Assembly (NCBI GenBank): GCA_964457755.1
Contig: CAYWGC010000001.1
Span: 128,332-192,331 of the forward strand
DNA: 64,000 bases
Source of the DNA: an uncultured Thermodesulfobacteriota bacterium
GTDB lineage: Bacteria > Desulfobacterota > Anaeroferrophillalia > Anaeroferrophillales > Tharpellaceae
Reading direction: 5' to 3'
Shown in pieces: positions 4,707-29,360 of this stretch. Positions within the stretch are counted from its first letter, which is position 1; each line of letters starts with the position of its first letter. The translations under genes were made by a program, and so were the position numbers. The notes beneath the pieces are model-generated. The model worked only from the letters and a program-made list of their open reading frames with translations. It ran no database searches and was not told the DNA's origin.

Positions 4707-5594
4707 ATGCCCAAAGAGGGAAAAAACAGACTCTTGTTGTCACTGAGTATTTTGCTGGTTCTTTCGGCTGGCTTGTTCACAGCCGTACCCGCCTGGACCG
4801 AGACCAATCTCTGCGCGGAATGCCATGAGGAGGTCAGTGCTGCTTTCACAAAGACCGTCCATGGTCGAGTTGGAATCAGCCATGATTTCGACTGCCAATC
4901 CTGCCATGGCAGCGCCGCAACTCACTTGAACGAGCCCTCCCGTAAAAATATTGTCTCTTTTGCTAAAGAGGCAGGACCGAGTGTTATCGAACAAAACCGG
5001 CGATGTCTGGAATGCCACGATAATACACCCCAAGTCGCCCTCTGGGAGATGGGAAGCCACAGCCGCAACGATGTTGCCTGTGTCAGCTGCCATTCGATTC
5101 ACAACCAGCGTTCCCAGGTTGATCAGCCAGCGGTTTGCTATACCTGCCACCGTTCGCTCCGCCTGACCGCGAACAAGATCTCGCATCACCCCATCACTGA
5201 AGGCAAAATTAAATGCAGCGACTGTCACAACAGCCATGGCACCCTTTTACCTAAGATGTTAGTGGAAGACAACATTAACCAACTCTGCTACCGCTGTCAC
5301 GCTGAAAAACGGGGGCCGTTTGTCTGGGAGCACCCACCGGTTGCAGAAAACTGCGCCACCTGTCATGAACCCCACGGCAGCCGCCATGAAAACTTGTTAA
5401 AAGAGAAGGTCGCCAACCTCTGCCAAGACTGCCATAATGCCGATCTCCATTCCAGCCGGGCTTACGATGCCAAAGCGGGTTTTTCCAGTGCTGGCCGAGC
5501 CCGCAGCATCGGCTTTGCCGGACGCTCCTGTTTGAACTGCCACGGCAACATTCACGGCAGCACCCAATTTGACCAACGCAGCTTCACAAGATAA
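4707..5594 (+). CDS. mtrA-like: Periplasmic decaheme c-type cytochrome, MtrA/DmsE/PioA family
   Basis: 295 aa. Signal peptide. Ten CxxCH motifs (CAECH, CQSCH, CLECH, CVSCH, CYTCH, CSDCH, CYRCH, CATCH, CQDCH, CLNCH) with the dense spacing typical of MtrA. RBS GGAGGAGGG upstream. Immediately followed (12 nt) by a large porin gene. Confidence 0.85.
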   Translation: MPKEGKNRLLLSLSILLVLSAGLFTAVPAWTETNLCAECHEEVSAAFTKTVHGRVGISHDFDCQSCHGSAATHLNEPSRKNIVSFAKEAGPSVIEQNRRCLECHDNTPQVALWEMGSHSRNDVACVSCHSIHNQRSQVDQPAVCYTCHRSLRLTANKISHHPITEGKIKCSDCHNSHGTLLPKMLVEDNINQLCYRCHAEKRGPFVWEHPPVAENCATCHEPHGSRHENLLKEKVANLCQDCHNADLHSSRAYDAKAGFSSAGRARSIGFAGRSCLNCHGNIHGSTQFDQRSFTR

Positions 5595-5605
5595 GGGAGG
5601 CAGAG

Positions 5606-7618
5606 ATGAAAAAAGCAGTTTATGCTCTGATTATTTTAGTTATGCTCGCCTCACAGACGTTTGCCGCAGCAGATGCAAAAGTCGAGGTTCAGGGATCAAT
5701 TGAGGCAGGTTACCGGATGGTTGATGATCAGAACGGCAACAATGCCCGTTTTCTCGAATACCGTGACCTTGATGATGATCCCTTCGGCGGTTTTGACCTG
5801 AGTCTGCAAAGGGGAACCTATTATTTGAACTTGCAGGGCAATAATATTGCCCAAGATGACCAGTCGTACCTGGTCGAAGGTACGGATTACCGGAACTTCG
5901 CCTTTACTCTTTTCTATGATGAAACACCCCATAATCTCAGCTTCGATGCCAGAGCTCCATATACGGGAATCGGCCACCAAGACCTTCAGCTGGCCCCGTC
6001 AACTAGCGACATGACCACTTTTGATTACAGCGTCGAGCGTGAAGAGTTTGGCGGCTATGCAACCCTCTCCTTAGGCACCCCTTTTTACCTTACCATGGGC
6101 GTTTTACGCCGCCAACAAGACGGCATTAAACCTCTGGGCAGTGGCGATTACTGGCGTAACCTGGAGTTGCCGGAACCGGTGGATTACACCACCGACGAGA
6201 TTACTTTTAAGGGGGGATACCACGGCCAAAACCTGCAGGCCTCTCTCAAGGGATACTGGAGTAAATTTGACAACGACAATGAGTCCATGACCCGGCCTTA
6301 CACAGGCGACATATTAACGTTACCTCCCGACAATGATTACGGTAAAATTGCTGCTCAGATGAGCTGGCGAAACCTGCCCTTACAATCCTTGCTGGCAATC
6401 CAGCTCAGCTATGCCAAACTGGAAAGCGACATCTCCCTTAAAGATATGGGCCTGACAAATACGGGCGGACTCTACAAAACTACCTTTGATGGTGATATAA
6501 CCTACACCAGAGGTGCCATCGCTCTTACCTCTCGGCCCACCTCTAAACTGGACACCCGAGTCTACTTCAACTATCTGGACAAGGATAATAACTCGGACAA
6601 GATCTCCGCCAGCCAAGAAAGCCAGATTTCTGACTACAATGAATACAAAACCGGCATCGACATGGGCTACAATCTGGCCCGGCATACCAAACTTTCCGCC
6701 GGCTATGAATATCGGGATATTGACCGTCACAACCGGCCTGATGCTGAAACAACCACCGACCAGTGTGTCTTTTTTGAGGTTAAAAACAGCAATCTCGATT
6801 TCCTGACTGCCAGACTGCACTACAAGAGATTGGAACGTGACTCGGACTTCGGTAACAAAAACCGTGGCACTGACCCGGTTACCAACAATGGGGAATGGAT
6901 AAAACGCTATATTCGGCCCTATGATGCCACCGATAAAAGTATGGATGAGATAAAACTGATTCTGGAACTTTATCCTCTACCACAACTGGACTTCGGCTTT
7001 GAATATAGTTATAAAATGAATGATTATGATGAGACCGATCTCGGCCTTACCAAAGACAAACGCCACACTCTAAATACTGATTTCGTTTGGCGGGCGACCG
7101 ACAAGGTTACCCTCAGCGGCTTTGTCGGTTACGAAAAGACGGAGGCTGACAGCGATCATCGGCAATTCGCAGCCGGTGAGTCAGCCGACATCTATGACAA
7201 CACTGACAGTGCCTTCAACTGGAATCAGGACAGAGACGATGATTATTGGGCCTGTGGTTTAGCCTTGGATTTTCCCAATATAGTGAAAAAACTGGATCTT
7301 CATTGCGCATGGCAATATCAGGATTCAGACGGCGAAGTCAGTTTCAGCTCCCCAGACGGACTGCTTGAAGATATCAATCAGTCCGACGATTATGACCTAC
7401 AGAAACTCGAGGTCCAGCTCACCTACGCCCTGCGAGACAACACCGATATAACCTTGGGCTACCTCTATGAGAAATATGACTATGACGACCTGCAGTTTGC
7501 AGATTATGAAGCTTACACACCGACCGGTACGATACCTGGCAGCTATCTTACCGGAGCCTATTATGAGCAAAGCTATAAGGCCAATGTCGGCTATCTCATG
7601 GTTTCTTATAATTTTTGA
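5606..7618 (+). CDS. mtrB-like: MtrB/PioB-family outer-membrane beta-barrel (porin partner of the decaheme cytochrome)
   Basis: 670 aa. Signal peptide MKKAVYALIILVMLASQTFAAADA. Alternating amphipathic beta-strands with short Asp/Asn-rich turns. C-terminal ...VGYLMVSYNF. Size and position 3' of the mtrA-like gene match MtrB/PioB. Confidence 0.75.
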   Translation: MKKAVYALIILVMLASQTFAAADAKVEVQGSIEAGYRMVDDQNGNNARFLEYRDLDDDPFGGFDLSLQRGTYYLNLQGNNIAQDDQSYLVEGTDYRNFAFTLFYDETPHNLSFDARAPYTGIGHQDLQLAPSTSDMTTFDYSVEREEFGGYATLSLGTPFYLTMGVLRRQQDGIKPLGSGDYWRNLELPEPVDYTTDEITFKGGYHGQNLQASLKGYWSKFDNDNESMTRPYTGDILTLPPDNDYGKIAAQMSWRNLPLQSLLAIQLSYAKLESDISLKDMGLTNTGGLYKTTFDGDITYTRGAIALTSRPTSKLDTRVYFNYLDKDNNSDKISASQESQISDYNEYKTGIDMGYNLARHTKLSAGYEYRDIDRHNRPDAETTTDQCVFFEVKNSNLDFLTARLHYKRLERDSDFGNKNRGTDPVTNNGEWIKRYIRPYDATDKSMDEIKLILELYPLPQLDFGFEYSYKMNDYDETDLGLTKDKRHTLNTDFVWRATDKVTLSGFVGYEKTEADSDHRQFAAGESADIYDNTDSAFNWNQDRDDDYWACGLALDFPNIVKKLDLHCAWQYQDSDGEVSFSSPDGLLEDINQSDDYDLQKLEVQLTYALRDNTDITLGYLYEKYDYDDLQFADYEAYTPTGTIPGSYLTGAYYEQSYKANVGYLMVSYNF

Positions 7619-15828: not shown

Positions 15829-17865
15829 ATGCGACAACTGATTCCCTCATCTAATATTATTAACGATCTCCTGGCCGAAAACTGGGAGCTGCGCTGGCGG
15901 GTTCTGGAAAACTTTTACCAGACCCAGCTTTTGCTACGCGATTTTGCCCATTCCTCAGAAGAACATAAACAGGCCCGCACCTTGTGCAAAGAGATGGCCG
16001 GCAGACTCAACGGTGCCAGTGATGTAAACCTGCATCTGGTTCTGACTGCAGCCTGGTTTTTAGGGGGCAACCACTTTCTCCTGCTGGCTTTAGAGGAGAT
16101 CGGAGTTGATGACCCGGAGACTGGTGATTCGGAAACCAAGCGTCTGAAAAAACCACTTATAAATAATCACCCAGAAGCCTCTTTCTTTGACTATTTCCAC
16201 TCCCTGTTGAGCCGTAACAAAGCCGTAGACGCTGCGACAGCCACCGCCATCAAATTTTTTCCCGCTGATCTCAGTCTTAAACTGCTCTGCGCCATCCCTG
16301 AACGTGAAGCAAGAGTTGCCGGTCTTAGTTTACTAAAAAACAATCAACCTGGACTTTTATTTAATGATTTTCTTCTCGCAAATAATCTCTTACTCCTGAA
16401 AGAGACGCCGGAACTTTTAGATTTTATCGGCCCCAATTTAACTCCTGAAACAGAGGCTGAAGTCACCAAGCTGGTATCAAAATTACTGGCCAGCAACAAC
16501 CTTATAGAATACGCAATCCGCGCGGCCGGGCGCCTGCAACTTGAAAGCTGCCGCCCCCAACTTAGAAAACTGATTGACGATGAACCCCTGGCAGCCGGAG
16601 CCCTGGCCCGGTTCGGTGATGAGATTGGGTGCAACAAACTGCTCAAATCCGGTAAATCATGGCGCCGCAAAAAACGCACCGCGGCCCTTTCCGAGCTGGC
16701 ATGGTGTAAGAGTCCCGAAGCCCTGGAACTTCTGCAAAGCCGGGCCCAGCAGAGTAATCTTGAAGAGCGCCATGAAGCTTTGCAGGCTCTTGGCCAAATG
16801 CGCAGCCCCGAAGCTCTGCAAATAATCCGCGATCTTCTTAACAAATCCCATAAAAAAGAGAACCTCAAGCTACTCTTACAAAGTATCACCGGCCCCAAGT
16901 GGCCGGCAGAGTGCCAACCTGAATGCCAAGATACAGCCAACCAACTCGCTCAATGGGCGGACAATGTTGAGTTTTACCCAACCCTGCTCCAGGCGCTGGC
17001 AGCCCTCGCCTACGATGATGCCTGGAACGACATTTTAAGCCGCATTAAAAGCCCCGTTCTCAAACCTCACTACCGAGAGATCGCCCTCTTCATGAGTCGT
17101 TTTGCGGATCAAGCCAAAATTCGGCAGAGCCTGCTGACTTTAACAAATGATATTGACTGGTCTTTTTCCTATCGCCTGATTAATCTATTATCCCCAAAAC
17201 TCAAAGGTTTAGACATCCCGCACTTGCTAAATCTACTGACCGATCGGGAAGAGGGACGGGCTTTGACTATCAAAGAACGTCTGACCAAAGGCCAGGATCT
17301 TGAGCGCATAACCGATGCCATGGCCGAATTCTTTGAACATCACCCAGAAATCGCCAACCTGACCATCGAAAAGTTGCTGACCGCCATCTCTATCGGCAGC
17401 CAACCCCCAAGTGAACTACTTTTTGCTGAAATAAGACAACAACCAAATGAATTAATCGATCTAATTCTTGGCAGTGGCCCGGGTAACGATCATGCTGATA
17501 TTACCGACCGTGACTTCCCCCTGCTGATGGCCATGCATTTACTCTCTGAAATCGAGGTTGAAGGCAGCGATTGTTTTGCGATAATAGTACACCGAACCCG
17601 GCGCTACAGCGGTTTCTTCCGAGAGTCTATAACTGCCGCCCTAAACCTTCTGCTTGACCAGGAAAATGAACTCAGCCATGTGCAAAATCTACCTATCTTA
17701 AATCAGATTATTGACTTTATTCGAGGGCGAATTCACTATGAAGATTTGCGCCAGAAAATCCTTCTAAGAATCAACCAGATAGTCCGCAAAAGCAAAGAAC
17801 TTAAGGTCTACAACGAAGCCTCTCAAACCAGAGAGCTCAAGATTTTCAAAGTGAAGAAACTCTGA
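15829..17865 (+). CDS. HEAT/PBS-lyase-type repeat protein (678 aa), function unknown
   Basis: Leu-rich helical repeats, e.g. SPEALELLQSRAQQSNLEERHEALQALGQMRSPEALQIIRDLL. No signal peptide. Stop overlaps the start of the next gene (TGATGG). Confidence 0.6.
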   Translation: MRQLIPSSNIINDLLAENWELRWRVLENFYQTQLLLRDFAHSSEEHKQARTLCKEMAGRLNGASDVNLHLVLTAAWFLGGNHFLLLALEEIGVDDPETGDSETKRLKKPLINNHPEASFFDYFHSLLSRNKAVDAATATAIKFFPADLSLKLLCAIPEREARVAGLSLLKNNQPGLLFNDFLLANNLLLLKETPELLDFIGPNLTPETEAEVTKLVSKLLASNNLIEYAIRAAGRLQLESCRPQLRKLIDDEPLAAGALARFGDEIGCNKLLKSGKSWRRKKRTAALSELAWCKSPEALELLQSRAQQSNLEERHEALQALGQMRSPEALQIIRDLLNKSHKKENLKLLLQSITGPKWPAECQPECQDTANQLAQWADNVEFYPTLLQALAALAYDDAWNDILSRIKSPVLKPHYREIALFMSRFADQAKIRQSLLTLTNDIDWSFSYRLINLLSPKLKGLDIPHLLNLLTDREEGRALTIKERLTKGQDLERITDAMAEFFEHHPEIANLTIEKLLTAISIGSQPPSELLFAEIRQQPNELIDLILGSGPGNDHADITDRDFPLLMAMHLLSEIEVEGSDCFAIIVHRTRRYSGFFRESITAALNLLLDQENELSHVQNLPILNQIIDFIRGRIHYEDLRQKILLRINQIVRKSKELKVYNEASQTRELKIFKVKKL

Positions 17866-19382
17866 TGGCTAAATCAATCTCAATCTTCTTTAACAATGTC
17901 AATCTGCAGGTCTACAGCCAGGATGAAGATAGCGGTCATATTGAGTCAGTCCACCTTGGCGACATTTCAACCACAGTCGAAATTAACACCCCTAAAGGTT
18001 CCGAAAAAATCCACCTGATCCCGGCCATGATCTGCTATGGCGATCGCATCTATTGCGGCCAGGAGGTTTTCAGCCATAAAAAATTCAACTCTACTGCGAC
18101 CTTCAAGTACATGAAGCAGTATATGGGCAAAAAACAGTACCTGCCCAGGATTATCAACGACCAGGAGATCAGTACCTTCCAGGCCGCTACTGATCTCCTG
18201 GTCAACATCATCGACCGCATCCATGCGCTCTACGGCAAAGATCAGATAGCAATGATCGTTTTCATTGTCCAGCCCCTTAACTTTTCCGTCTTCGCGGCAA
18301 CCATCGAAGAGTTCTGTCTGCGCATTGGCCTGATTAACTATAAGATTGTTGATGAAACCGTGTGCGCCCTTTTAGCTTACGATCTTGCTACCCAGATAAA
18401 CCAACACCTGGTCTATCTCCATTTCGGCTACACAACCATCGACCTCTATCTGGTCAAGATTGTCGAGAGCACTCGTGAACCCCGGCTCCAGAGCGTAATC
18501 ATCTGCAGTATGCATAAAAACTATGGTGGAGCCGACATCGACCGAGTGATCCAGGTCCATTTCGCCGAAAAAGTCAAATTCAATATGAAAAAGGCCCGTG
18601 AAATCAGAGGTAAACTTAACCTGAACCCCCAGTTTCATGAGACCATTGACGGAGTTGATCTCCATCTTTCACGCGAAGATCTCCATAAAATGCTTGACCA
18701 GAAAGGTTATGGCGATGAGCTGAAAGTTCTTTTACGCGATCTCTTTGACCTGGCGTCCGGTTTTGGGGTCACAAATGACAATGTAGGTTATGTTTTAGGC
18801 AGTGGTTTAAGCTTGCCGACCCACTACTACCATGACATATTGAAAAAATTTTTCGGCCCCAAGCTTCTGAGCAACCACGCCCATGAAGCGATCCCGATAG
18901 GGGCCTTGCGCTACCTTAAAAAAGGCGGAATTCAGGCTACTGTTAAAGCGAACTATGCGCTTCGCAGCCGCACCGCCAAAGGCGATGGCTACCGCTACGA
19001 CATCATCGTTCCCAAAGGCACCACCTTCCCAACCCAGAACGGTATCACCAGTATCGTTGCTAACGGTTTTTTTGCCGGCCAGCTTGAGGTGGAACTCGAT
19101 ATTTTCCGGATGGATCGCCCCGAATCGAGCAATGACCGGGAAATTGTCATTGATGCTGCGGGACACATGCAACTCGAAGAGAACTTAGGCGATACACAAC
19201 AATCTTTTATTAATGAGGCACGCCCGGAGATCATCCCGCTCGACCCCCCGGCCTTGGACAATGAACAACGCTTAGAAATTACGTTTGACATCAGCTTGAA
19301 CTGTGACTTACTGATTACGGTCAAAGACCTGCGCCGCAATCAGACTATCTGGAAAAGAAAAAAATCGGTGCGCCTGCAGTGA
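17865..19382 (+). CDS. Divergent Hsp70/actin-fold (ASKHA) ATPase, Hsp70-like protein (505 aa)
   Basis: Phosphate-2-like LVYLHFGYTTIDLYLV and adenosine-like VLGSGLSLP motifs; Hsp70 nucleotide-binding-domain length (about 380 aa) plus a short C-terminal domain. ATGA overlap with the upstream gene. Confidence 0.55.
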   Translation: MAKSISIFFNNVNLQVYSQDEDSGHIESVHLGDISTTVEINTPKGSEKIHLIPAMICYGDRIYCGQEVFSHKKFNSTATFKYMKQYMGKKQYLPRIINDQEISTFQAATDLLVNIIDRIHALYGKDQIAMIVFIVQPLNFSVFAATIEEFCLRIGLINYKIVDETVCALLAYDLATQINQHLVYLHFGYTTIDLYLVKIVESTREPRLQSVIICSMHKNYGGADIDRVIQVHFAEKVKFNMKKAREIRGKLNLNPQFHETIDGVDLHLSREDLHKMLDQKGYGDELKVLLRDLFDLASGFGVTNDNVGYVLGSGLSLPTHYYHDILKKFFGPKLLSNHAHEAIPIGALRYLKKGGIQATVKANYALRSRTAKGDGYRYDIIVPKGTTFPTQNGITSIVANGFFAGQLEVELDIFRMDRPESSNDREIVIDAAGHMQLEENLGDTQQSFINEARPEIIPLDPPALDNEQRLEITFDISLNCDLLITVKDLRRNQTIWKRKKSVRLQ

Positions 19383-19582
19383 CTGAAAAGCCCAATAAAA
19401 CTACCCCTCCCTCTGCAGCGCCCCTAAAAGAGGAGCTGCAGGTTCATATCCGCATTACAGAAAACGGTGAAATATGTGCCTGGGGCCTGGACCAAAAAGG
19501 CGAAGAGAAAATTTACGGATTGACCGGCAACCTCGATTTAATTAATAGATATAAGGCTATGTCATTTAACTTGTGCGGTTAA
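19379..19582 (+). CDS. Small hypothetical protein (67 aa), GTG start overlapping the stop of the Hsp70-like gene
   Basis: GTGA overlap implies translational coupling; no recognisable domain. Confidence 0.35.
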   Translation: MTEKPNKTTPPSAAPLKEELQVHIRITENGEICAWGLDQKGEEKIYGLTGNLDLINRYKAMSFNLCG

Positions 19583-19773
19583 ATTTGAAGTTTTATTAGA
19601 CTCTTGCCTGTGAAGTTTCACTCAAAACGATCAAAACCTTACTTTCAACTACAGATAGCAGTAGAGTACACAGAGGCTCCAGCAAGAAAGCTTTCGCTGT
19701 AAACCCTGTGGTAATTTTCTAACTTAAAACTTTAGCCTTTTTGGTTCCGGATACACCGGATTAGGAGTCGATA

Positions 19774-21264
19774 ATGACCTTTCTTGATCGCTTCAACACC
19801 ACCATTCGCAGCAACCACTCCCTGATCAACGTGGTAACTTACGAAGAGGACCGCTTTCTGACGATGATGGCTGAATCCCCGCTTTTCAAAGACAAAAACA
19901 TTATTATCTGGGATCTCGGGGATGGCTTTAAATCGATCAAGGGAGAGATGAGCGGCATCAAAAACAAGGATCGTCCCGACCCCATCAACTGCCTGCAGGA
20001 GATTAGTAAATTCAGCGGCAACACCATCTTTATTTTGCGTGATTTCCATCTCCATTTTCGTGAAAGTATTATTCTACGCTCCTTAAGAAACCTTAACCAT
20101 GACTTGCAGTTTACCAAAAAAACCATCATCTTGACCACGCCCAGCGCGACCTTGCCGATAGAGTTACGGGAAGATGTCTGCCAGATCGAGTTGGAACTCC
20201 CTGGCTACTATGAAATTGAAAAAAAGCTCGACAGTGTCGTTGCCAGCGCCGCCCAAGGTAAACCCCCAACCCCCCAACTCAAAGAGAAGATTGTTGAATC
20301 AACCCTCGGGCTCTCAATGGTCAACATTAAGAACCTTTTTTCCAAAATAATCATCACTAACGGAGCCGTTGACGAACGCGCCATAGAAATCATCCTGCAG
20401 GAAAAACGCGGCATTATTAAAAAAGGAGAAATTTTAGAATTTTTCCCGGTTCAAGAGAGCCTTAACGATATCGGCGGCCTCGATAATCTCAAAGGCTGGC
20501 TCCGCAAGCGCAGTCAGGTTTTCACCCACAAAGCCAAAGACTACGGCCTGCCATCACCTAAAGGTATTCTTATTATCGGAATCCAGGGAACCGGCAAGAG
20601 CCTCACCGCTAAAGCGACCGCCGGACTCTGGAAATTACCGTTATTACGGATGGATCTGGGCAAGGTTTTTGGAAGTTTACTGGGTGAATCTGAACAGAAC
20701 CTGCGGCAGGCAATTCACTTGGCCGAAACTATCTCACCCTGCATCTTGTGGATCGATGAACTCGAAAAAGCTTTCGCCGGAAGCTCCGGTTCGGCCGGCG
20801 ACGGCGGCACTTCGGCTCGGATCTTAGGAACCTTTCTCACCTGGATGCAGGAAAAGACTAAACCGGTTTTCATCATAGCTACCGGCAATGATGTCGCCCA
20901 GCTTCCCCCTGAACTGATGCGCAAGGGCCGTTTTGATGAGATTTTTTTTGTTGACCTGCCTTCAACCTCTGAACGACAAGCAATCTTTAAGGTTTTGCTG
21001 GAAAAGGTACGCCCCGTCATCCGGCAGTTCAATCTTGAGAAACTGGCAGATGCCACAACAGACTACAGTGGGGCTGAGATCGAACAGATTATTTACGATG
21101 CTATGTTTAACGCTTTTGACGATAACCAACGCGAATTCACGGAAGCTGACATTCTCTTAAGCGTTAACGAAATTATCCCGATATCACGCTTGATGAGCGA
21201 AAAAATCGATGGACTTAAGGCCTGGGCAGCCCAACGCACCCGTAAAGCTAACAGTGAATCATAA
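19774..21264 (+). CDS. AAA+ ATPase of the Ycf46-like class (N-terminal domain of unknown function plus a classic C-terminal AAA module)
   Basis: Walker A GIQGTGKS; Walker B ILWIDELEKAF; sensor-1 IATGN; arginine finger GRFDEIFFVDLP. 496 aa. GGAG RBS. Confidence 0.8.
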   Translation: MTFLDRFNTTIRSNHSLINVVTYEEDRFLTMMAESPLFKDKNIIIWDLGDGFKSIKGEMSGIKNKDRPDPINCLQEISKFSGNTIFILRDFHLHFRESIILRSLRNLNHDLQFTKKTIILTTPSATLPIELREDVCQIELELPGYYEIEKKLDSVVASAAQGKPPTPQLKEKIVESTLGLSMVNIKNLFSKIIITNGAVDERAIEIILQEKRGIIKKGEILEFFPVQESLNDIGGLDNLKGWLRKRSQVFTHKAKDYGLPSPKGILIIGIQGTGKSLTAKATAGLWKLPLLRMDLGKVFGSLLGESEQNLRQAIHLAETISPCILWIDELEKAFAGSSGSAGDGGTSARILGTFLTWMQEKTKPVFIIATGNDVAQLPPELMRKGRFDEIFFVDLPSTSERQAIFKVLLEKVRPVIRQFNLEKLADATTDYSGAEIEQIIYDAMFNAFDDNQREFTEADILLSVNEIIPISRLMSEKIDGLKAWAAQRTRKANSES

Positions 21265-21297
21265 TTACTTATTAAAACTGCTCAAGGGAGAACAACC

Positions 21298-21675
21298 ATG
21301 TCCCACTTCACCAAGATAAAAAGTAAAATCGCTGATAAGGTTTTTTTAAAAAAAGCGATCAGCGACATGGAGCTAGAGTACCAGGAAGGTAAATTGAAAG
21401 CCAAGGGTTGGCTCTGGAAAAAAGAGAAAGCCGATATTGTCATCCCGACTAAAAGCGGTTTCGATATCGGTTTTCGTTTCAATGGTGAAACCTTTGATGT
21501 AGTCGCCGACTGGGACTCAATCAAGGACGTCGACCAGACAACCTTCATGGATACCCTGAACCAACGCTATGCTTATAATGTTGTCAAAAACACTTTGGCA
21601 CAACAGGGCTTTCTCCTCACCAACGAGGAAGCCGAAGCGGGAAATATAAATATGACATTAAGCCGGAATATTTAA
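21298..21675 (+). CDS. DUF1257 / Ycf35-like protein (125 aa)
   Basis: The N-terminus MSHFTKIKSKI... and the central DIGFRFNGE...FDVVADWD motif resemble Ycf35-family proteins; this is recollection of the family, not a database search. Confidence 0.55.
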   Translation: MSHFTKIKSKIADKVFLKKAISDMELEYQEGKLKAKGWLWKKEKADIVIPTKSGFDIGFRFNGETFDVVADWDSIKDVDQTTFMDTLNQRYAYNVVKNTLAQQGFLLTNEEAEAGNINMTLSRNI

Positions 21676-21692
21676 CAGGAGATCACCAAATC

Positions 21693-21890
21693 ATGGAAAA
21701 AATAGATATTACGATCGGCAAAGATGGCGCCGTAGATCTGCAACTAGCTGGTTTTGAGGGTGGAAAGTGCCTTGAGGTTACCAAAATCCTGGAAACCCTG
21801 CTCGGCAATGAGATCGTTGAACGAAAGATGACCAGCGAATACTACACAACCAAGAATGTTCAGTTGGAAGAAAAACTACCCGGCTCCTGA
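21693..21890 (+). CDS. DUF2997-like small protein (65 aa)
   Basis: MEKIDITIGKDGAVDLQLAGFEGGKCLEVTKILETLLG...TSEYY matches the pattern of DUF2997 proteins, which usually sit next to DUF1257 genes. Confidence 0.5.
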   Translation: MEKIDITIGKDGAVDLQLAGFEGGKCLEVTKILETLLGNEIVERKMTSEYYTTKNVQLEEKLPGS

Positions 21891-22093: not shown

Positions 22094-22528
22094 ATGCCTC
22101 CGGAGTGGACAATGACCCCCAGCCAAGCCCGAATTAACAGTTGCAACTACGGCTATCAAGACGACAAATCAACCGACATTTTTGAAATGATCCAGAGTAT
22201 TCCGACCTTGACCAAGATTGGGGCAATCTGCTTAGTTCTAGGCAAATGCTTCGGCATCATGGCAATCCCAGCGGCCTTCATCCCCGCTCTTAATATTTTA
22301 GTCGTACCTTTAATCTTAGTTTGGGGATCTTTTGTTTTCATCGCTATTGCCCTCTGCTCAGTGGATCACTTCAAAAAGAAAAAACTTGAAACTCAAAATG
22401 AGAAAAAAGATATTATAGCATCAATGATTGAAGAGACTCCTGAATTACGAGATCAGATTGTCGATGAATTTGAGCAAGTTGGTATGGGGTCTGCTGTCAT
22501 CGTACCTTTGGCTGTCGGTCAACGTTAA
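22094..22528 (+). CDS. Small membrane protein (two TM helices), hypothetical
   Basis: Hydrophobic segments LTKIGAICLVLGKCFGIMAIPAAF and ILVVPLILVWGSFVFIAIALC; followed by a terminator. Confidence 0.4.
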   Translation: MPPEWTMTPSQARINSCNYGYQDDKSTDIFEMIQSIPTLTKIGAICLVLGKCFGIMAIPAAFIPALNILVVPLILVWGSFVFIAIALCSVDHFKKKKLETQNEKKDIIASMIEETPELRDQIVDEFEQVGMGSAVIVPLAVGQR

Positions 22529-22551: not shown

Positions 22552-22596
22552 ACTTCAAAAAGCACCCCAAATTTATCTGGGGTGCTTTTTTTTTTG
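22552..22596 (+). terminator. Rho-independent terminator
   Basis: AAGCACCCCA / TGGGGTGCTT stem followed by T10. Confidence 0.75.
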
Positions 22597-22903: not shown

Positions 22904-24301
22904 ATGGCTGGATTACAATGGCAAAAACTGAAGCTTATGGCCGGGCTGCTATTGGGGTGTTGCTTGCTGACAACATCCGGATTTGCCCTGGAGTTGGGTG
23001 GCGCCGATATCTCAATCAGGAGTACCACCGAATATCGACTGCAATGGTCTGACAGTCCGGCGAATTACATGATTGTCGACGAGGATCAGGACCAGGATAT
23101 TTTTGAAACCCTGGCGATTGATGTTAACTGGCAAGACTTAGGCCTGATCTTCTCTTCGATGGCCACCTACGTTAAAGATCTGGACGGCACCCGCCAAGGC
23201 TCAATCTTCCAGGACTACACTGATAGCCGTGGTAGCCATCGGCAGGATTTTCAATGCTATTACGCTTATCTGGAAAAAACCGGCCTCTTTAGCAACGATC
23301 TCACGGTCAGAGCTGGCCGCCAATATGCCTACGGCGCCGAGACCGTACAGTTTGACGGGGTCTGGGCCCATTACGACCGCCCCCAATGGCTGGGACTGGA
23401 AGTTGAAGCTTTTGGCGGCCTCGCGGTTCAGCACTACAGTGACCTTGGACCGGATGGCATTGGCGGAGCAAATGTTAGGATTCGCCCGCTGCCGGGCCTC
23501 TCTCTTGATTTAAATACTGTGATTTTTGAAGAGACCTCATGGGAGTCCTCAATCTACTGGCAGCCTTCTGAACTCTGGAAATTTCGCAGCCGCATCGCCT
23601 TCATTAATGATCATACTCGTTTTTTCGACAGCGGCCTTGAAACCACTATCGCGGCAACCGGCACTGTCCTCGATTTCTCCTTCTATCGGCGTTTCGCCAT
23701 CTCTTCAGAGGCCGACTTCCTTTTCGACTTCAGTTATACCCTCGATGAAGCTTTAAACTCGGAGATGAATCGCCTCTATCTGATGCAAGAACAGGGTTAT
23801 CTCGAATTTGATGTCCGCATCAGCCAACCGATCTCTATTGTCAAAGGACTTACCCTCTTCGGTCGCTACACCAATCGCAGTCTCGCTCATGGCGAGGATG
23901 AAAACCTCTACAACACCGATTTTGAAAGGGTAACCACCGGTTTTGACCTTGATCAGTGCTTTGGTTGGCAGGGTTTTCGCTGTAGTGCCGGATTCAGCCA
24001 ATGGTGGGAGGATCGAGATCAGTTTTACGAAGGGGAGTCAACCTCCTGGTTTGTCGATCTCGAACAGGAGTTATTCCACAGGCTTGAACTTGAAGCTGGC
24101 TACTACCATAAAACCGAGAATGTCAACAGCCTCCTCGAAGATGAGGCCTCAACCAGCTACCGGGCGGCGATCGCCTATCGACTTTGCGACCACTCGCGCG
24201 TCGAGATCTCTTATGAATACGCGCAAGATGATTTCTACGAAGATGAGCTGGGAGTTGACTACATTAACTCTCTAACTATCTCACTTGATCTTAATTTCTA
24301 A
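22904..24301 (+). CDS. Outer-membrane beta-barrel protein (465 aa), putative porin of a porin-cytochrome complex
   Basis: Signal peptide; beta-strand periodicity; C-terminal ...ISLDLNF; directly upstream of two multiheme cytochrome genes. Confidence 0.6.
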   Translation: MAGLQWQKLKLMAGLLLGCCLLTTSGFALELGGADISIRSTTEYRLQWSDSPANYMIVDEDQDQDIFETLAIDVNWQDLGLIFSSMATYVKDLDGTRQGSIFQDYTDSRGSHRQDFQCYYAYLEKTGLFSNDLTVRAGRQYAYGAETVQFDGVWAHYDRPQWLGLEVEAFGGLAVQHYSDLGPDGIGGANVRIRPLPGLSLDLNTVIFEETSWESSIYWQPSELWKFRSRIAFINDHTRFFDSGLETTIAATGTVLDFSFYRRFAISSEADFLFDFSYTLDEALNSEMNRLYLMQEQGYLEFDVRISQPISIVKGLTLFGRYTNRSLAHGEDENLYNTDFERVTTGFDLDQCFGWQGFRCSAGFSQWWEDRDQFYEGESTSWFVDLEQELFHRLELEAGYYHKTENVNSLLEDEASTSYRAAIAYRLCDHSRVEISYEYAQDDFYEDELGVDYINSLTISLDLNF

Positions 24302-24353
24302 AGTAACAAGGTCTCTCAAAATCATTAACAATTATATTATACAGGCAATTTCT

Positions 24354-25253
24354 ATGAGTATGCATAAGAGAAAATTATTCTGGGTTGGGCTTATGGCAAT
24401 CGCCCTTGGTGCCCTGGTTCTGGGAGCCTGCAAATCTTCGGTAGGCCTCAAATTCAGCCACCGCTCCCACATTGTCGAACAGGAAGCCACCTGTGACCAA
24501 TGCCACAAAAAAGATGCCAACGGCAATCTGGCTGCCGCCACTATGGCTGACTGCCAGGAGTGCCACGAGATCAATGTCAACGAGCCCTCTAAGGAGTGTC
24601 TTCTCTGCCATACACCGGAAAGTGCGGCCAAGGATTACGAGATCGAGAGAGCTGGAAAACCGGCAAATTACACTGACCTGATTTTCAGTCATAAGACTCA
24701 TACAGACCTTGCCTGCGACTCCTGCCACACCTCCATGGGCCAGAATTACAACCTTAAAAACGGTCCCTTTATGGTCGTTTGCCTCAACTGCCATAAGAAT
24801 CAGGGCGCTCCCATGGAGTGCGAAGCCTGCCACACTGTCTTAAGAGCTGATCAAGCTCCGGCAAGCCATCATCAAGACTGGGAAGCCAAACATGGCTTTG
24901 CCAGCCGTTTATCGGACTCCTGCTCCTACTGCCACCCGAACCGTCAGGCTTTTTGCGAAAAGTGCCACCAGACCGAAAAACCAAAAGATCACAAGTTTGG
25001 CTGGAAAACCACCGGCCACGGGGTTGAAGCGACCCATGATCGCCGCACCTGCGCCACCTGTCACTCGGCCGGCTACTGTGTCGATTGCCACAAACACCAG
25101 AAACCGGTCTCCCACTTTCGCGGCGACTGGATGGCCTATCAACGTGACAACGGTCACGGCGAGGCGGCCCGACGTAATTTCCGCAGCTGCAACGTCTGTC
25201 ATGAGACGGGTGAGTGTATGCAGTGTCATAAAGGTATAATTTTAAGGAAATAA
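24354..25253 (+). CDS. Dodecaheme c-type cytochrome, lipoprotein (12 CxxCH in about 300 aa)
   Basis: Lipobox LVLGAC after MSMHKRKLFWVGLMAIALGA. Twelve CxxCH motifs: CDQCH, CQECH, CLLCH, CDSCH, CLNCH, CEACH, CSYCH, CEKCH, CATCH, CVDCH, CNVCH, CMQCH. Confidence 0.85.
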   Translation: MSMHKRKLFWVGLMAIALGALVLGACKSSVGLKFSHRSHIVEQEATCDQCHKKDANGNLAAATMADCQECHEINVNEPSKECLLCHTPESAAKDYEIERAGKPANYTDLIFSHKTHTDLACDSCHTSMGQNYNLKNGPFMVVCLNCHKNQGAPMECEACHTVLRADQAPASHHQDWEAKHGFASRLSDSCSYCHPNRQAFCEKCHQTEKPKDHKFGWKTTGHGVEATHDRRTCATCHSAGYCVDCHKHQKPVSHFRGDWMAYQRDNGHGEAARRNFRSCNVCHETGECMQCHKGIILRK

Positions 25254-25340
25254 TATTTTCGCTGCAATGAGTTTTGTTTTTTATAAATTAAAATATTCTT
25301 TTTACCCTCACAATATTTTTCAACCCTTGGAGGTAGCTCG

Positions 25341-28300
25341 ATGAAAAAAATTTACCCCATTATCCTGGGAGCCTTCTTACTGGTCCTCACCCCTCTGCTG
25401 GTCGGTGCAACGCACCCCCCGGTAACCCTTTACGACGGTCACGGTAATCGCATCATTGATCAACTTGATGACAGCGAAATCGTTACTGCGGCCGGCGGCT
25501 CAACTTACAAAGCCGGGCCGCCCTACAGCCCCAAACAGACCTGCGGCAAATGTCATGACTACCACGAAGTCACCAAAGCCTACCATTTTCGTGAAGGCGC
25601 CGGTGAAGACGGCCAAGGTATCAGTGATACCTGGAGCAGTGAGAATCAGGACAACCCGCTCTACAAATACCTGGCCAATGCTTATGGACATCTTTTGAGC
25701 CCGGGTCAATTTGGAGCGTGGTGACCGCCGTCTTACCGCCAGGTGGCGGTAAAAAAAGAGCGCGGCCACTTCCTTGATCCTTTTACCTCTGAAGATAAAC
25801 CTTACTTTTTTGACATGGGAACCGCAGATCACATTGCCACTTGTGAATCTTGCCATCCCGGTGGTGGTCCGGTTGAAGGTATCGTCAATATGGATGGGAC
25901 GATGACCCAGTTTGACGACCCCAGTCTGGCACCCGAACACTCTTACGATCGTGACTTTTACGGTTACAGTTCCAACGATCTCACCATGGCTATTTATGGT
26001 TCTGATTCGATTTCGGAAACCATGGCCAATATCGGCGACCCCAAACCCCACGACTGGTCCAAATCCGGCGTCGTTGAAGCCGACTGCCTGCTCTGCCACA
26101 TCGATCCAGAAAGTGCTTACAGCTACCGAGCTGCTGATGGTCTTAAAGTGCAGTCCTTCCGCCCCCGGATGATGATTTTCGCGGAACGCGACGAAAATTT
26201 CAAGGCCCAGAAAATTTCTTTTGGGATGCCAACCAAAGTTGGCCTCGAAAACAGTTCGGCCCTCTACTACAGTGACAGCCTGCAACGCATGGGTCGACCG
26301 ACACCAATGATGGCTTTAGGTCAACTACCAAAAGAGATTGTCGGCGAGATGATGCAGATGTGGGTTGACGGTCTTGCCGGAATTGAAGCCCAGGGCATCA
26401 ACCTGCCTTTCGCCCTTTACGGCCAGAATATCAGTAAAATCTGGGAAACCAACGGCATGCTCAAGGCAGCCTACTGCGCCAACCCCAACGGCGTCATGGA
26501 TGAAATGGGCCGCCTCCAGGGAGCTCAAGCTGCAATTGGCTCACTCTTTCAGGGATTTCTCCAATTCATGATTGGCAAAGGTTTATTACCGCCGGATGCC
26601 GACATGAATATACTAATGGGCCTTTTCTTTAATGATTTCATCTACGCCTATCAGCTGCAATTTCCCAACGATATGCTTTTGCCGATTCCTTACGCTCTTA
26701 GAGCTTACGAACCCGGCAAATTCTACACTAACTGGGACAGTTTTCACGCCTCAACCCGTGACTATATCCGCTCCGGCCTGATCGAAGGCGAGGGCATTCC
26801 CTATGTCGGCAAAAACGGTACGGAATTGAGTGCCACCATGTACGGCATGGGCAAGATTATGCAGGGCGACTATACTTATGTCAACCAGGCAACCGGTCAA
26901 CTTGATCTCTCTCTGGTCATTCAGGACCTCCAGGAAGGTAAAATTCCGGAAGGTGAGATCAATCCGGTACTCCATGATTATCTGCCGAGTTTCTTCAACT
27001 ATATGCCCTCCGGCGAACTCATGGGCCTCGACTTTAACCAGGACGGGGCTCCAGTTACCTATCTGCGGATAGATCGCGATGGTGATGACTGGACACCAAA
27101 AGTCTTTTACAATCTCGCTGATATCGGGGCTGACGGGGTTCTCCCCATGGCCGAGATGTTTGGTGGCAGCAAAGACCGAGAAAGTTATAAATGGGTAAAA
27201 GTTTGTGGTCAGTGTCATGTCATGACCAAGGATCACGGCAACAGCGAATGGACCAAAGCCCGTCTCTACAATATGGGTTTCCCGGCCGATTATGTCAAAA
27301 ACGGTCACTACGTCAATTTTACCGATGATCAGGAAGATCGCGGCTACGATGTTCATATGTCGGGTAAATGGATGGGTTGCGGCAGCTGTCATCTGCGCGA
27401 TAACGGATCTTTGAACGACAAGCATAATTTTCTAAAAGGGGTCGATACGGCCCACATGGTGCGTAACGATCTTGATGCCAACCCCAGGGTCAAAAGCTGT
27501 GAAGGTTGTCACCTTGCAGGCGAAGGGCACGGCAGCAACCCAGCCCTCAAACATGAAGAAGTTTTCGGCGAAAGCACCGGTCGCCATCTCTCTGAAGTCT
27601 CCTGCCAGGCCTGTCATGTACCCTTCAGGAAAACCTGGCGCTTTAGAGCTTTTGATGACACTTTAGGCTACTACGCCAACTTTGATAACCTCATGGGTTA
27701 CAACATTCTGCCCGGCGGCGATGGCGCAATCATGGCCTTTCCCTCACCAGCTTATGCAATCTCACCGGTCTACTCCTGTTCCCCGGGCTATGGCATTCCT
27801 CACTTCAATATGCTTGCCAACCACATTGAAGCCGATGGCCAGGGCATTGAATCTATGGATGTCCAGTCGCAGATGGTTGACTACTTCTTTATGGACGGTG
27901 AGTCCGATCCCGGCCAGATGGTCAACGGCATGCCGACCAACTTTAAATTTGACTTCTGGAAATATTTTCTTCAGGCCGGTTACGAAGGCATGAAGGCGAT
28001 GGGTGTCCCCCTCGAGTATACCGATCTCACCGATAACGAAGTTTTTCCGCCGCTCTACTATGCAAACGGCATCAACGGTTATCCGCAGGTGGTTACTGGC
28101 AATCCGATCACGGTTATGACCTGGGTCGACACCAACCCCCAACCGGATGCTGACATGAGTGAGATGGCTTATAGCGGTGCCCGTATTCTCTATCTCAAAG
28201 AGATGAATGCGATCATTAGAGATTACAAACGCCCAACTAAACTGGGCATGGTTAACCCTATGGATCTGGCGATGATTCCGGCTAATGACCCGACCTGGGC

Positions 28301-29360
28301 TGAAAATCCCTATGTCGGACGCGTAATCCTTAAAGAGAGTGGTTACGTTATCTTTGACCATACCGGCGACATGTTCCCCGATATCTGGTGGGACGAAGAT
28401 GTCAGAGCGGTCCAGGAGTCCCTCAAAAAAGTCCTTATCGCTGAAGGCGGCACCGACCCCAACCCGGTAATGTTTCTTGCAGCTCACTACTTCTCCGACA
28501 GCCATGGGGTGCAACCTAAAGAGTACTCTTTAGGGGCCAAGTCCTGTAATGACTGTCATGGTGACGTAACCAAGGATGCCGGGGCCCTGCGGGTTACCGA
28601 CCGCATCATCTCTTATCTGCCTTGGGCTCCACCCTGGTTTAGAGATGAAAACCGGGCTATGCGTTACGACCCTGAACAGGGTATGATCCCAGCCAACCCC
28701 GACGGTCTCTTCATTGTTGATGGCGAAATCGACTACGTCCAAGCAATCGAAGCCAACGGCATGCGTTTTCTTGGCGCCAGAGAGAAAGATATTCTCAAAC
28801 TCAGTCACCATCATGCAGAAGCCCTCTTCACTTTAGCTTCCGAAGGAACGGTTACCGGTGACTCAATCTTCGGCGTTGACCCGACCCTGCTGTCTCCTGA
28901 AGAAAGAGCCACGGAATATGCTAAACAGGTCGTCAACGGCCCCTGGATGGATAAAACCCATTTCTACATCCCGCAAGAGCTTAAACCACAACTTGCCGGT
29001 TTAGGTTTTGTTGTCGGCGGTAAAGAGGATGTCTACTTAAGTGGCCGCGGCTTTGCTCAAGCCTACACGCTGCGCTATGAACTTATGGCTCCGCATGAAG
29101 TAGATAACGCAGCCGTCAGGACACATGCTTTACCGGCTGCCATTATCCGCCTGCCCTTTACCGGTAGCACGCCAGAAATCTGGACTATGGGTGAACACGA
29201 CACCTTCTTTAAACTTGACACCAACGCCGTTATTGTCGGCCACCAGAGCGCCTACGTTCTCGTCAAGGTCAATAACCCTGGCGAGTATGTCGCGGTCGAA
29301 CAGGGAGCCGGCGGTGGCAACGCTCTGCTTTATGACCTCTGGGGGGCTTTCTTCAAGTAG
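25341..29360 (+). CDS. Very large octaheme c-type cytochrome (about 1340 aa if read through). The N-terminal signal-peptide/monoheme segment (25341-25721) and the 1205-aa heptaheme body (25743-29360) are in the same frame, separated only by TGA at 25722-25724. Either a selenocysteine or read-through gene, or a recent pseudogene.
   Basis: Frame arithmetic: (25743-25341) is divisible by 3. The first segment has the signal peptide MKKIYPIILGAFLLVLTPLLVGA and CGKCH. The second has CESCH, CLLCH, CGQCH, CGSCH, CEGCH, CQACH and CNDCH but no export signal of its own. Haem density is low, implying large non-haem domains. Confidence 0.6.

Follow-up and report, generated by a model that had tools for sequence, protein, structure and literature searches.

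A six-gene block around a Ycf46-family AAA+ ATPase in an uncultured Thermodesulfobacteriota bacterium, tentatively read as a protein-remodelling module

Introduction

Ycf46 and Ycf35 have for decades been listed as "hypothetical" plastid and cyanobacterial genes, having gathered phenotypes (CO2 use, stress, circadian timing) without a mechanism, and it is against these two that we set a six-gene block found at positions 15829-21890 of a 64,000-nucleotide (nt) stretch of contig CAYWGC010000001.1 from an uncultured Thermodesulfobacteriota bacterium, the whole of which is called the window here. Among the closest described arrangements is the slr0373-slr0374(ycf46)-slr0376 stress operon of Synechocystis, which responds to high light, blue light, salt, oxidative stress and a shortage of iron, sulfur or nitrogen (cited in PMC7496141); Ycf46 (slr0374) is reported to affect CO2 utilisation (Jiang et al. 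2015). The three-gene ycf46 operon of Synechococcus elongatus depends on RpaB and (p)ppGpp, and its Ycf46 has been described as KaiC-interacting (bioRxiv 10.1101/2025.07.21.665879). Across 127 red-algal plastid genomes, ycf35 and ycf46 are kept or lost in correlation, along with ycf34 and the haem oxygenase gene pbsA (PMC5940233), while a duf2997-ycf35-fed7 cluster, in which fed7 encodes a ferredoxin, is conserved in cyanobacteria (PMC4284462).

The original prediction, made from the letters of the DNA, had pointed to a triad of a Ycf46-like AAA+ protein and two small partners (Ycf35/DUF1257-like and DUF2997-like), had taken its presence in a non-photosynthetic host as an argument for a general cellular function and had cast the small proteins as substrate or adaptor of the ATPase. 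Judging by gene arrangement, the region is best explained as a single co-transcribed module of six genes centred on a Ycf46-family AAA+ protein, the products of which we tentatively read as a protein-remodelling machine. The literature found on DUF1257 and DUF2997 holds no account of the triad on plasmids or phages, or of its Hsp70/HEAT extension; no literature was found on the AAA gene of IncC plasmids, nor, in what is searchable, a description of the Hsp70-like/HEAT variant lacking a radical SAM partner.

Results and Discussion

Layout and conservation of the block

The genes all lie on the + strand and run 5' to 3' from a HEAT-repeat protein to a DUF2997 protein, as follows:

15829..17865, + strand: HEAT-repeat protein, 678 amino acids (aa); Pfam HEAT_2 E 8.4e-11, HEAT_PBS
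17865..19382, + strand: Hsp70-like protein, 505 aa; Pfam HSP70 E 1.8e-5
19379..19582, + strand: small open reading frame (ORF), 67 aa; 4-nt overlap (GTGA) with the preceding gene
19583..19773, no strand: AT-rich intergenic gap, 191 nt
19774-21264, + strand: AAA+ protein, whole, 496 aa; Pfam AAA PF00004, AAA_lid_3
19774..20451, + strand: AAA+ N-terminal half, family-specific, residues 1-226; no P-loop
20452..21264, + strand: AAA+ active classical-clade ATPase module and lid; Pfam AAA, AAA_lid_3
21298..21675, + strand: DUF1257 (Ycf35-type) protein, 125 aa, start MSHFTKIKSKI; PF06868
21693..21890, + strand: DUF2997 protein, 65 aa; PF11211
21989..22016, + strand: sigma-70 consensus promoter, TTGACA, 16 nt, TATAAT; 12/12 matches

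The HEAT stop codon overlaps the Hsp70-like start (TGATG), the AAA+/DUF1257 spacer of 33 nt carries a Shine-Dalgarno-like AGGGAGA and the DUF1257/DUF2997 spacer a Shine-Dalgarno-like AGGAG, and, as the junctions overlap or are short with ribosome-binding sites, the genes are tightly coupled. The last three ORFs, a tightly spaced run on the + strand, lie exactly where the original prediction had placed them, and its first spacer (33 nt) was right; the second is 17 nt, not 18, and the real unit is not the triad but the block with the HEAT-repeat and Hsp70-like proteins in front. The perfect sigma-70 consensus, 3' of the DUF2997 gene and upstream of a 144-aa ORF (22094-22528), suggests that the next transcription unit starts there and hence marks the 3' boundary of the block.

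Two relatives (L090 and L093), the ATPases of which share 79-90% identity with that of the window, keep all six genes in unchanged order within flanks that differ: one has PAS histidine kinases and a flavodoxin there, and the other shares with the window a TRAP transporter and multihaem cytochromes, the block of the window sitting between transporter and cytochrome genes.

The AAA+ protein

The C-terminal half holds an intact AAA module of the classical clade, of the same type as Cdc48 D2, FtsH and PAN, in which the hydrophobic pore loop is conserved (Pfam AAA E 4.5e-29 over residues 265-394; AAA_lid_3 E 6e-9), and, as had been predicted, the catalytic set is complete:

20578-20601, + strand: Walker A GIQGTGKS, residues 269-276
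20674-20694, + strand: pore loop SLLGESE, residues 301-307
20743-20766, + strand: Walker B ILWIDELE, residues 324-331
20878-20892, + strand: sensor-1 ATGND, residues 369-373
20920-20940, + strand: arginine fingers RKGRFDE, residues 383-389

Nine residues (G269, G272, G274, K275, D328, E329, N372, R383 and R386) are invariant among 20 aligned, diverse members of the family. Over practically its whole length (residues 11-494), the protein can be aligned with one from Nostoc that is named "stress-responsive protein Ycf46" in both NCBI and UniRef (42% identity over 488 residues, E 2e-128), whereas the CDC48, PAN, FtsH and IteA models cover only residues ~230-470 at ~80-110 bits against cut-offs of 500-1000 (FtsH_fam: 99.5 bits, cut-off 600, ATPase module only), and the model scan of this protein reported no Lon or CbbX model. 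As the named Ycf46 matches over the full length and the other models over the ATPase module only, the protein is Ycf46-like rather than of FtsH, Lon or CbbX type, and by its sequence it belongs to the Ycf46 family in the broad sense (COG "SpoVK/Ycf46/Vps4"). The predicted Ycf46 architecture, with the classical AAA module at the C-terminus of a protein of ~500 aa, was thus borne out, and the N-terminal half aligns with a named Ycf46.

Sequences of the PDB match residues 227-454 only, the closest being p97/Cdc48 D2 modules (E 9e-53), and none covers the N-terminal half, which is nonetheless conserved among plasmid, phage and cellular homologues and, searched alone among 1.84 billion representatives, retrieves 1,671 clusters (50% identity) at E <= 1e-3. 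Because HHalign matches this half to the C-terminal one (probability 64%, E 6.5e-5), pairing residues 100-198 with the sensor-1, arginine-finger and lid region, it is probably a degenerate AAA module without a P-loop, placed ahead of the active one. Most members of the family carry an extra C-terminal tail of ~15-30 residues beyond the position of window residue 496, many ending hydrophobic-x-hydrophobic-acidic; the clade of the window (...RKANSES) has no such tail.

In a neighbour-joining tree of 90 members, the window protein groups with the triad-type loci L010, L092 and L090-L093, near plasmid and phage members, and the cyanobacterial proteins form two other groups. One of these, flanked in 14 loci by slr0373-family (NF052617; 139.8 bits against a cut-off of 100) and DUF1257 genes, has the arrangement of the published stress operon; the other is "solo", within a conserved housekeeping neighbourhood. 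As the window protein falls in a separate clade and the window holds no slr0373-family (NF052617) gene, its placement and neighbourhood indicate that it is not orthologous to slr0374, the stress-operon Ycf46. The claimed functional link between Ycf46-type ATPases and DUF1257 is independently supported by the DUF1257 gene of those 14 operon loci and by the correlated loss of ycf35 and ycf46 from red-algal plastids.

The DUF1257 and DUF2997 proteins

Both small proteins are what they had been taken for, their profile matches lying well above the cut-offs: PF06868 for the first (E 9.2e-23, 80.9 bits, cut-off 22.2) and PF11211 for the second (E 6.5e-14, 52 bits, cut-off 24.1). Invariant in DUF1257 are the N-terminal MSHF, the MSH part of which has been described for Ycf35/DUF1257 (PMC13060386), G37, D56-I-G-F59, Q89, Y91 and Q103. 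Its AlphaFold2 model (predicted local distance difference test, pLDDT, 92.4) is alpha/beta, with G37 between strands 29-36 and 42-50, and has no significant PDB fold match (Foldseek, best E 0.2). Across 18 diverse members of DUF2997, G12, G20, G23 and C26 are invariant (the G-x-x-G-x-x-C core being present), and the model predicts a beta-hairpin and a helix (pLDDT about 75-79), with Cys26 near the helix start, followed by a disordered C-terminal tail; Foldseek found no PDB match for it either. Beyond the helix, family members share a recurring T-x-E-[YF]-[YF] motif (in the window TSEYY, 21831-21845). Natural DUF1257-DUF2997 fusions were absent among the 68 and 36 homologues retrieved.

Distribution, mobile elements and the question of chance

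Full-length homologues of the AAA+ protein at 44-55% identity are labelled Chloroflexota, Omnitrophota, Nitrospinota, Bacteroidota, Nanoarchaeia and others, and a scan of one genome per species gave 80 AAA+ loci in about 15 phyla, roughly half of them cyanobacterial. By tblastn, the protein is further encoded in 728 plasmids (598 conjugative, mostly from Enterobacteriaceae) and in 63 phage records, 34 of which are cluster-O mycobacteriophages (e.g., Corndog gp96); in IMG/VR, relatives are present on at least 447 viral contigs of the first 600 that matched the pattern, and PHROGs holds full-length families for AAA+, DUF1257 and DUF2997 alike. Partners were counted with custom hidden Markov models (HMMs) if they shared the strand of the AAA+ gene and lay no more than 6 kb from it:

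Genomic loci, one genome per species (n=80): DUF1257 in 30, DUF1257 and DUF2997 in 13
Viral contigs (n=80): DUF1257 in 20, DUF1257 and DUF2997 in 19
Phage and plasmid records (n=9): DUF1257 in 6, DUF1257 and DUF2997 in 6
Further contigs (n=9): DUF1257 in 8, DUF1257 and DUF2997 in 8

DUF2997 occurs without DUF1257 in 2 loci only, and the gap between the two is below 60 nt in 23 of 48 loci. That an ordinary AAA+ gene merely happens to lie next to two unrelated small conserved genes would agree with the many family members that do without these neighbours; it is contradicted by the recurrence of the triad, on the same strand, in many of the sampled loci, across phyla, plasmids and phages, in varied orders and with tight spacing, and by the almost complete dependence of DUF2997 on DUF1257, for which reasons a meaningless adjacency can hardly be credited. 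Two DUF1257 paralogues are present in L013, L045 and L051, in tandem after the AAA+ gene and with no DUF2997 in the latter two, where the second DUF1257 may substitute for DUF2997.

Since its 130-aa "hypothetical" protein is a DUF1257 relative (E 2e-26), the IncC plasmid backbone, e.g., that of pNDM-1_Dok01, carries the complete triad (L007, 7980-10140: AAA+, the unannotated 130-aa DUF1257-like protein and DUF2997), an arrangement common to hundreds of clinical Klebsiella, E. coli and Salmonella plasmids. The three-gene core being common in non-photosynthetic bacteria, plasmids and phages, its presence in this organism is not surprising, contrary to what had made it seem worthy of notice, and a "general cellular function" is not established by it, as the abundance on mobile elements equally suggests an accessory or conflict role.

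Such a role would be anti-phage defence or, for a mobile element, counter-defence or establishment, with the HEAT/WD40 protein sensing the invader and the Hsp70-like and AAA+ proteins setting the threshold or executing the response. To the plasmid and viral counts above may be added the genes found nearby in some loci (an ABC-ATPase and RloB pair, a zeta toxin, DUF4007, RadC, type I restriction-modification), the likeness of the AAA module to the defence ATPase IetA (E 2e-28) and the conflict systems in which Hsp70 occurs with GrpE and repeat proteins (Kaur et al. 2020, PMC7159879). PADLOC, however, has no model for DUF1257, DUF2997 or the Hsp70-like protein, the IetA match is limited to the ATPase module, and no recognisable effector (nuclease, protease, TIR domain or pore former) is present in the block; moreover, Ycf46 and Ycf35 are kept in plastid genomes and core cyanobacterial stress operons, and the block of the window lies between transporter and cytochrome genes, with no integrase or transposase among the genes annotated, which cover part of the window. 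We consider a conflict system unlikely, if still to be taken seriously.

Several features of the mobile loci are recorded here in their own right. In the cyanobacterial plasmids L003 (3149-4722) and L006 (3112-5042), an ABC-type ATPase (AAA_15/AAA_21) stands in or beside the cluster, followed by a small gene that is annotated as RloB family in L006 and is an unannotated 167-aa protein in L003, where the pair separates DUF1257 from DUF2997; the two genes together presumably resemble a defence gene pair. Plasmid versions often add a ComEA-like helix-hairpin-helix protein. In phages without DUF1257 and DUF2997, a ~270-aa phrog_11021 protein (Corndog gp95) usually lies directly downstream of the AAA+ gene (L001, 5586-6386, and 25 viral loci, e.g., L101, 6301-7095), often near genes that are primase-like and DnaC-like by sequence motifs only.

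Recurrent partners and a possible link to radical chemistry

Components of the block recur in shuffled order in at least four phyla, among them in Desulfobacterota-type, Chloroflexota, cyanobacterial and Chlorobi loci, and some of the arrangements are as follows:

L092, 54% relative: AAA, DUF1257, DUF2997, HSP70, then peroxiredoxin
L178, 54% relative: AAA, DUF1257, DUF2997, HEAT_2, HSP70-like
L175, Chloroflexi-labelled contig: AAA, HEAT+WD40, GrpE-like, HSP70, DUF1257, DUF2997, radical SAM
L012, Bellilinea: AAA, Hsp70, DUF1257, DUF2997, NrdG-like, WD40
L003, Pseudanabaena plasmid: GrpE, Hsp70, DUF1257, ..., DUF2997, AAA, HEAT+WD40
L174, Nanoarchaeia-labelled contig: WD40, 651-aa protein, AAA, DUF1257, DUF2997, radical SAM

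A radical SAM gene of the glycyl-radical-activase type accompanies 23 of the 46 full-triad loci outside the window, some being NrdG-like (99-117 bits against the NrdG cut-off of 126) and others PflX/AmmeMemoRadiSam-like, and in 8 of the 10 NrdG-carrying viral loci it lies between the DUF2997 and DUF1257 genes. This raises a further explanation, under which DUF1257 and DUF2997 would not be adaptors; a glycyl-radical-activase-like radical SAM protein, or a ferredoxin, would modify, load or use them as the clients or carriers of iron-sulfur or radical chemistry, with the AAA+ protein as maturation or reactivation factor and the window as a variant that lost or outsourced its radical SAM partner. 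It accords with the ferredoxin of the cyanobacterial duf2997-ycf35-fed7 cluster, with the invariant Cys of DUF2997 and the invariant N-terminal Ser-His of DUF1257, with the reaction of the Synechocystis ycf46 operon to iron deficiency and oxidative stress and with the joint plastid loss of ycf35 and ycf46 with ycf34 and the haem oxygenase gene. It is at odds with the window itself, where no NrdG- or PflX-like radical SAM gene was found (best E 0.037, an unrelated ORF), and with its close relatives L090 and L093, which have none either; one Cys and one His could not hold a cluster alone, DUF2997 has no NifU/Nfu similarity by HMM or fold search, and the DUF1257 hairpin misfits the glycyl-radical signature, a large residue preceding the Gly. 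We hold this explanation, too, to be unlikely, though a serious rival. Its broadest form, an ancient system shared by plastids, cyanobacteria, anaerobes, plasmids and phages that would handle iron-sulfur- or radical-dependent proteins through a His- and Cys-bearing small pair loaded or modified by radical SAM enzymes or ferredoxin and remodelled by the AAA+ protein, with the Hsp70-derived holder and the HEAT/WD40 scaffold assisting the ATPase in some lineages, is a long shot, although, if true, it would supply a mechanism for Ycf46 and Ycf35.

Two more specific candidates were tried and set aside. For DUF2997 as a Nfu/NifU-like iron-sulfur scaffold, there was no NifU match when 18 members were scanned against Pfam at E <= 10 and no PDB match by Foldseek, the moderate confidence of the model (pLDDT 65) leaving the idea unsupported rather than excluded; one homologue is labelled "NfuA" in one source. 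As a glycyl-radical protein, DUF1257 fails in that its G-aromatic hairpin does not fit R-V-x-G-[FWY], the window having KGW.

The genes ahead of the ATPase

The Hsp70-like protein matches Pfam HSP70 (PF00012) only in part (residues 155-242, 23.6 bits against a cut-off of 20.6) and a custom HMM of the partner family at E 8e-206. Where GrpE-linked partners read IDFGTSNT, FDFGGGTLD and VGGSSxIP, the window reads ISIFFNN, LHFGYTTID and GSGLSLPT, so that intact phosphate-1, phosphate-2 and adenosine motifs, as expected of a functional ATPase chaperone, are not present, and among the partners compared these ATP motifs are kept only in loci that also carry GrpE. Since the motifs are replaced and no GrpE was found in the window, the protein has probably lost ATP binding. 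The C-terminal ~130 aa, when the alignment is read against the DnaK sequence pattern, look to us like an Hsp70 substrate-binding beta domain; all aligned partners have this region and none has the helical lid. A search for a J-domain hidden within the large repeat proteins likewise found none.

The HEAT-repeat protein can be interpreted as a scaffold, or large repeat component, for the block. An equivalent of 681 aa is present in relatives at 79% identity, and HEAT_2 proteins with or without WD40 fill the same role in L178, L175 and L003, with weak pairwise similarity to the window protein that is confined to the repeats (E 8e-4). Homology to the HEAT+WD40 proteins as such was rejected, as BLAST gave E 0.7-1.8 and only the HEAT_2 repeats are common. 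In L093 (90% identity; 5205-7215), the equivalent is called as two ORFs of 323 and 345 aa, either through a frameshift or as a genuine split.

The 67-aa ORF is found only in close relatives (63-70 aa, 51-54% identity) and has no Pfam, NCBIfam, PADLOC or PHROG match; the notion of a second DUF2997 came to 3.1 bits, which is not significant. The gap that follows it holds an insertion of ~160 nt relative to L090 and L093, where the gap measures 13-33 nt. It matched no known RNA in Rfam and is not repeated in the window, no consensus promoter was seen on its + strand, and its raw predicted fold energy is -40 kcal/mol.

A protein-remodelling machine as the preferred reading

The reading that we prefer, at a probability of roughly 0.38, is that of an ATP-driven protein-remodelling machine, in which the Ycf46-type AAA+ protein would form a ring and remodel or unfold proteins using ATP. 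DUF1257 and DUF2997 would be its dedicated adaptor or regulator pair, the disordered tail of DUF2997 (T-x-E-Y-Y) and the invariant His and Cys being candidate contact or sensing sites, and in this lineage the client would be caught or held by the HEAT-repeat protein and the Hsp70-like protein without ATP motifs. Gene content, motifs, the conservation of the block and its distribution are observed; that a ring forms, that the proteins interact physically, that the small pair serves as adaptor and what kind of client is handled are what we infer, as is the status of the small proteins as "substrate or adaptor" in the original prediction.

This reading is favoured because the catalytic and pore-loop residues are intact and invariant across the family and the N-terminal half is AAA-like, because the genes are tightly coupled, because six genes are kept while the flanks differ and the components recur elsewhere in other orders, because DUF2997 is almost always accompanied by DUF1257, mostly at a distance of 0-50 nt, and because the Hsp70-like ATP motifs are kept only alongside GrpE; it is further favoured by the cyanobacterial Ycf46 operon, which has a DUF1257 gene and responds to many stresses, by the joint retention or loss of ycf35 and ycf46 in red-algal plastids and by the peroxiredoxin, desulfoferrodoxin and flavodoxin among the neighbours of relatives. 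A number of points weigh against a remodelling machine: the pore-loop residue is a non-aromatic Leu, no J-domain co-chaperone was detected, 50 of the 80 genomic and 58 of the 80 viral AAA+ loci have no adjacent partners, and a simple housekeeping chaperone neither accounts for the frequent radical SAM partner nor fits well with the heavy presence on plasmids and phages.

Surroundings of the block

In the loci L090-L092, the genes beside the block include peroxiredoxin (AhpC/TSA), desulfoferrodoxin, flavodoxin and cytochrome bd, the peroxiredoxin of L092 lying on the same strand 4 nt past the preceding gene. In the window, the ORF at 22094-22528 (144 aa) probably encodes a membrane protein and is followed by a strong terminator-like hairpin (22557-22590). 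Multihaem cytochrome genes lie further downstream (24285-29360: a 322-aa ORF rich in CxxCH motifs and a 1205-aa ORF), and their equivalents in L093 have faint or weak MtrC/MtrF-type Pfam matches; these cytochromes fit the metal-reducing lifestyle that had been proposed for the host. Among relatives with a name, the closest bear the label Deltaproteobacteria or Ca. Tharpella aukensis.

Comparison with known systems

ClpB/Hsp104 with DnaK/GrpE form a bi-chaperone disaggregase, i.e., an AAA+ machine paired with an Hsp70-family protein. The block is alike in joining an AAA+ to an Hsp70-family protein, with GrpE added in the ATP-competent variants, a likeness offered as an analogy: in contrast to ClpB/Hsp104, the window ATPase is of another clade, with a single active tier and no coiled-coil M-domain, and, unlike in the DnaK system, its truncated Hsp70 lacks the lid, carries degenerate ATP motifs and comes with no J-protein found. 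The defence or toxin-antitoxin systems IetAS/SgiAT, which combine an AAA+ protein with a subtilisin-like protease, have a similar ATPase module (PADLOC IetA E 2e-28, NCBIfam IteA E 1.2e-24), but the match takes in only AAA+ residues ~253-470 (253-467 for the PADLOC IetA model), the N-terminal half is different and the block has no protease. The multi-gene accessory systems of Kaur et al. 2020 (PMC7159879) likewise pair an Hsp70-family protein, with or without GrpE, with large repeat proteins; those, however, are centred on TRAFAC GTPases or tubulins and lack a Ycf46-type AAA+ protein, DUF1257 and DUF2997, whereas the block of the window has no GTPase domain by Pfam.

Among the cyanobacterial systems, the slr0373-slr0374(ycf46)-slr0376 operon has the same two-tier ~500-aa ATPase with a DUF1257-family gene directly downstream. 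The window differs from it in lacking an slr0373-family gene, in having an ATPase of another clade and in adding DUF2997, the Hsp70-like and HEAT-repeat proteins and the small ORF, the cyanobacterial loci having no adjacent DUF2997. The duf2997-ycf35-fed7 cluster (PMC4284462) shares the DUF1257-DUF2997 pair, with the MSH N-terminus in both, but the block has no ferredoxin and links the pair directly to the ATPase.

The same triad core, often in the same order, is found in the IncC backbone (pNDM-1_Dok01), Rhizobium phage RHph_I4 and Rhodococcus and Bacillus plasmids, where it often comes with NrdG-like and ComEA-like proteins and without the Hsp70-like and HEAT proteins, the ATPases having 31-40% identity. 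As IncC plasmids of E. coli and Klebsiella carry this core, the function of the triad can now be tested with standard enterobacterial genetics and biochemistry. The Ycf46-Ycf35 partnership is conserved well outside photosynthetic organisms and extends to DUF2997, Hsp70-like, HEAT/WD40 and radical SAM partners, and the window is to be seen as a further member of a large, functionally uncharacterised family and not as an exceptional occurrence.

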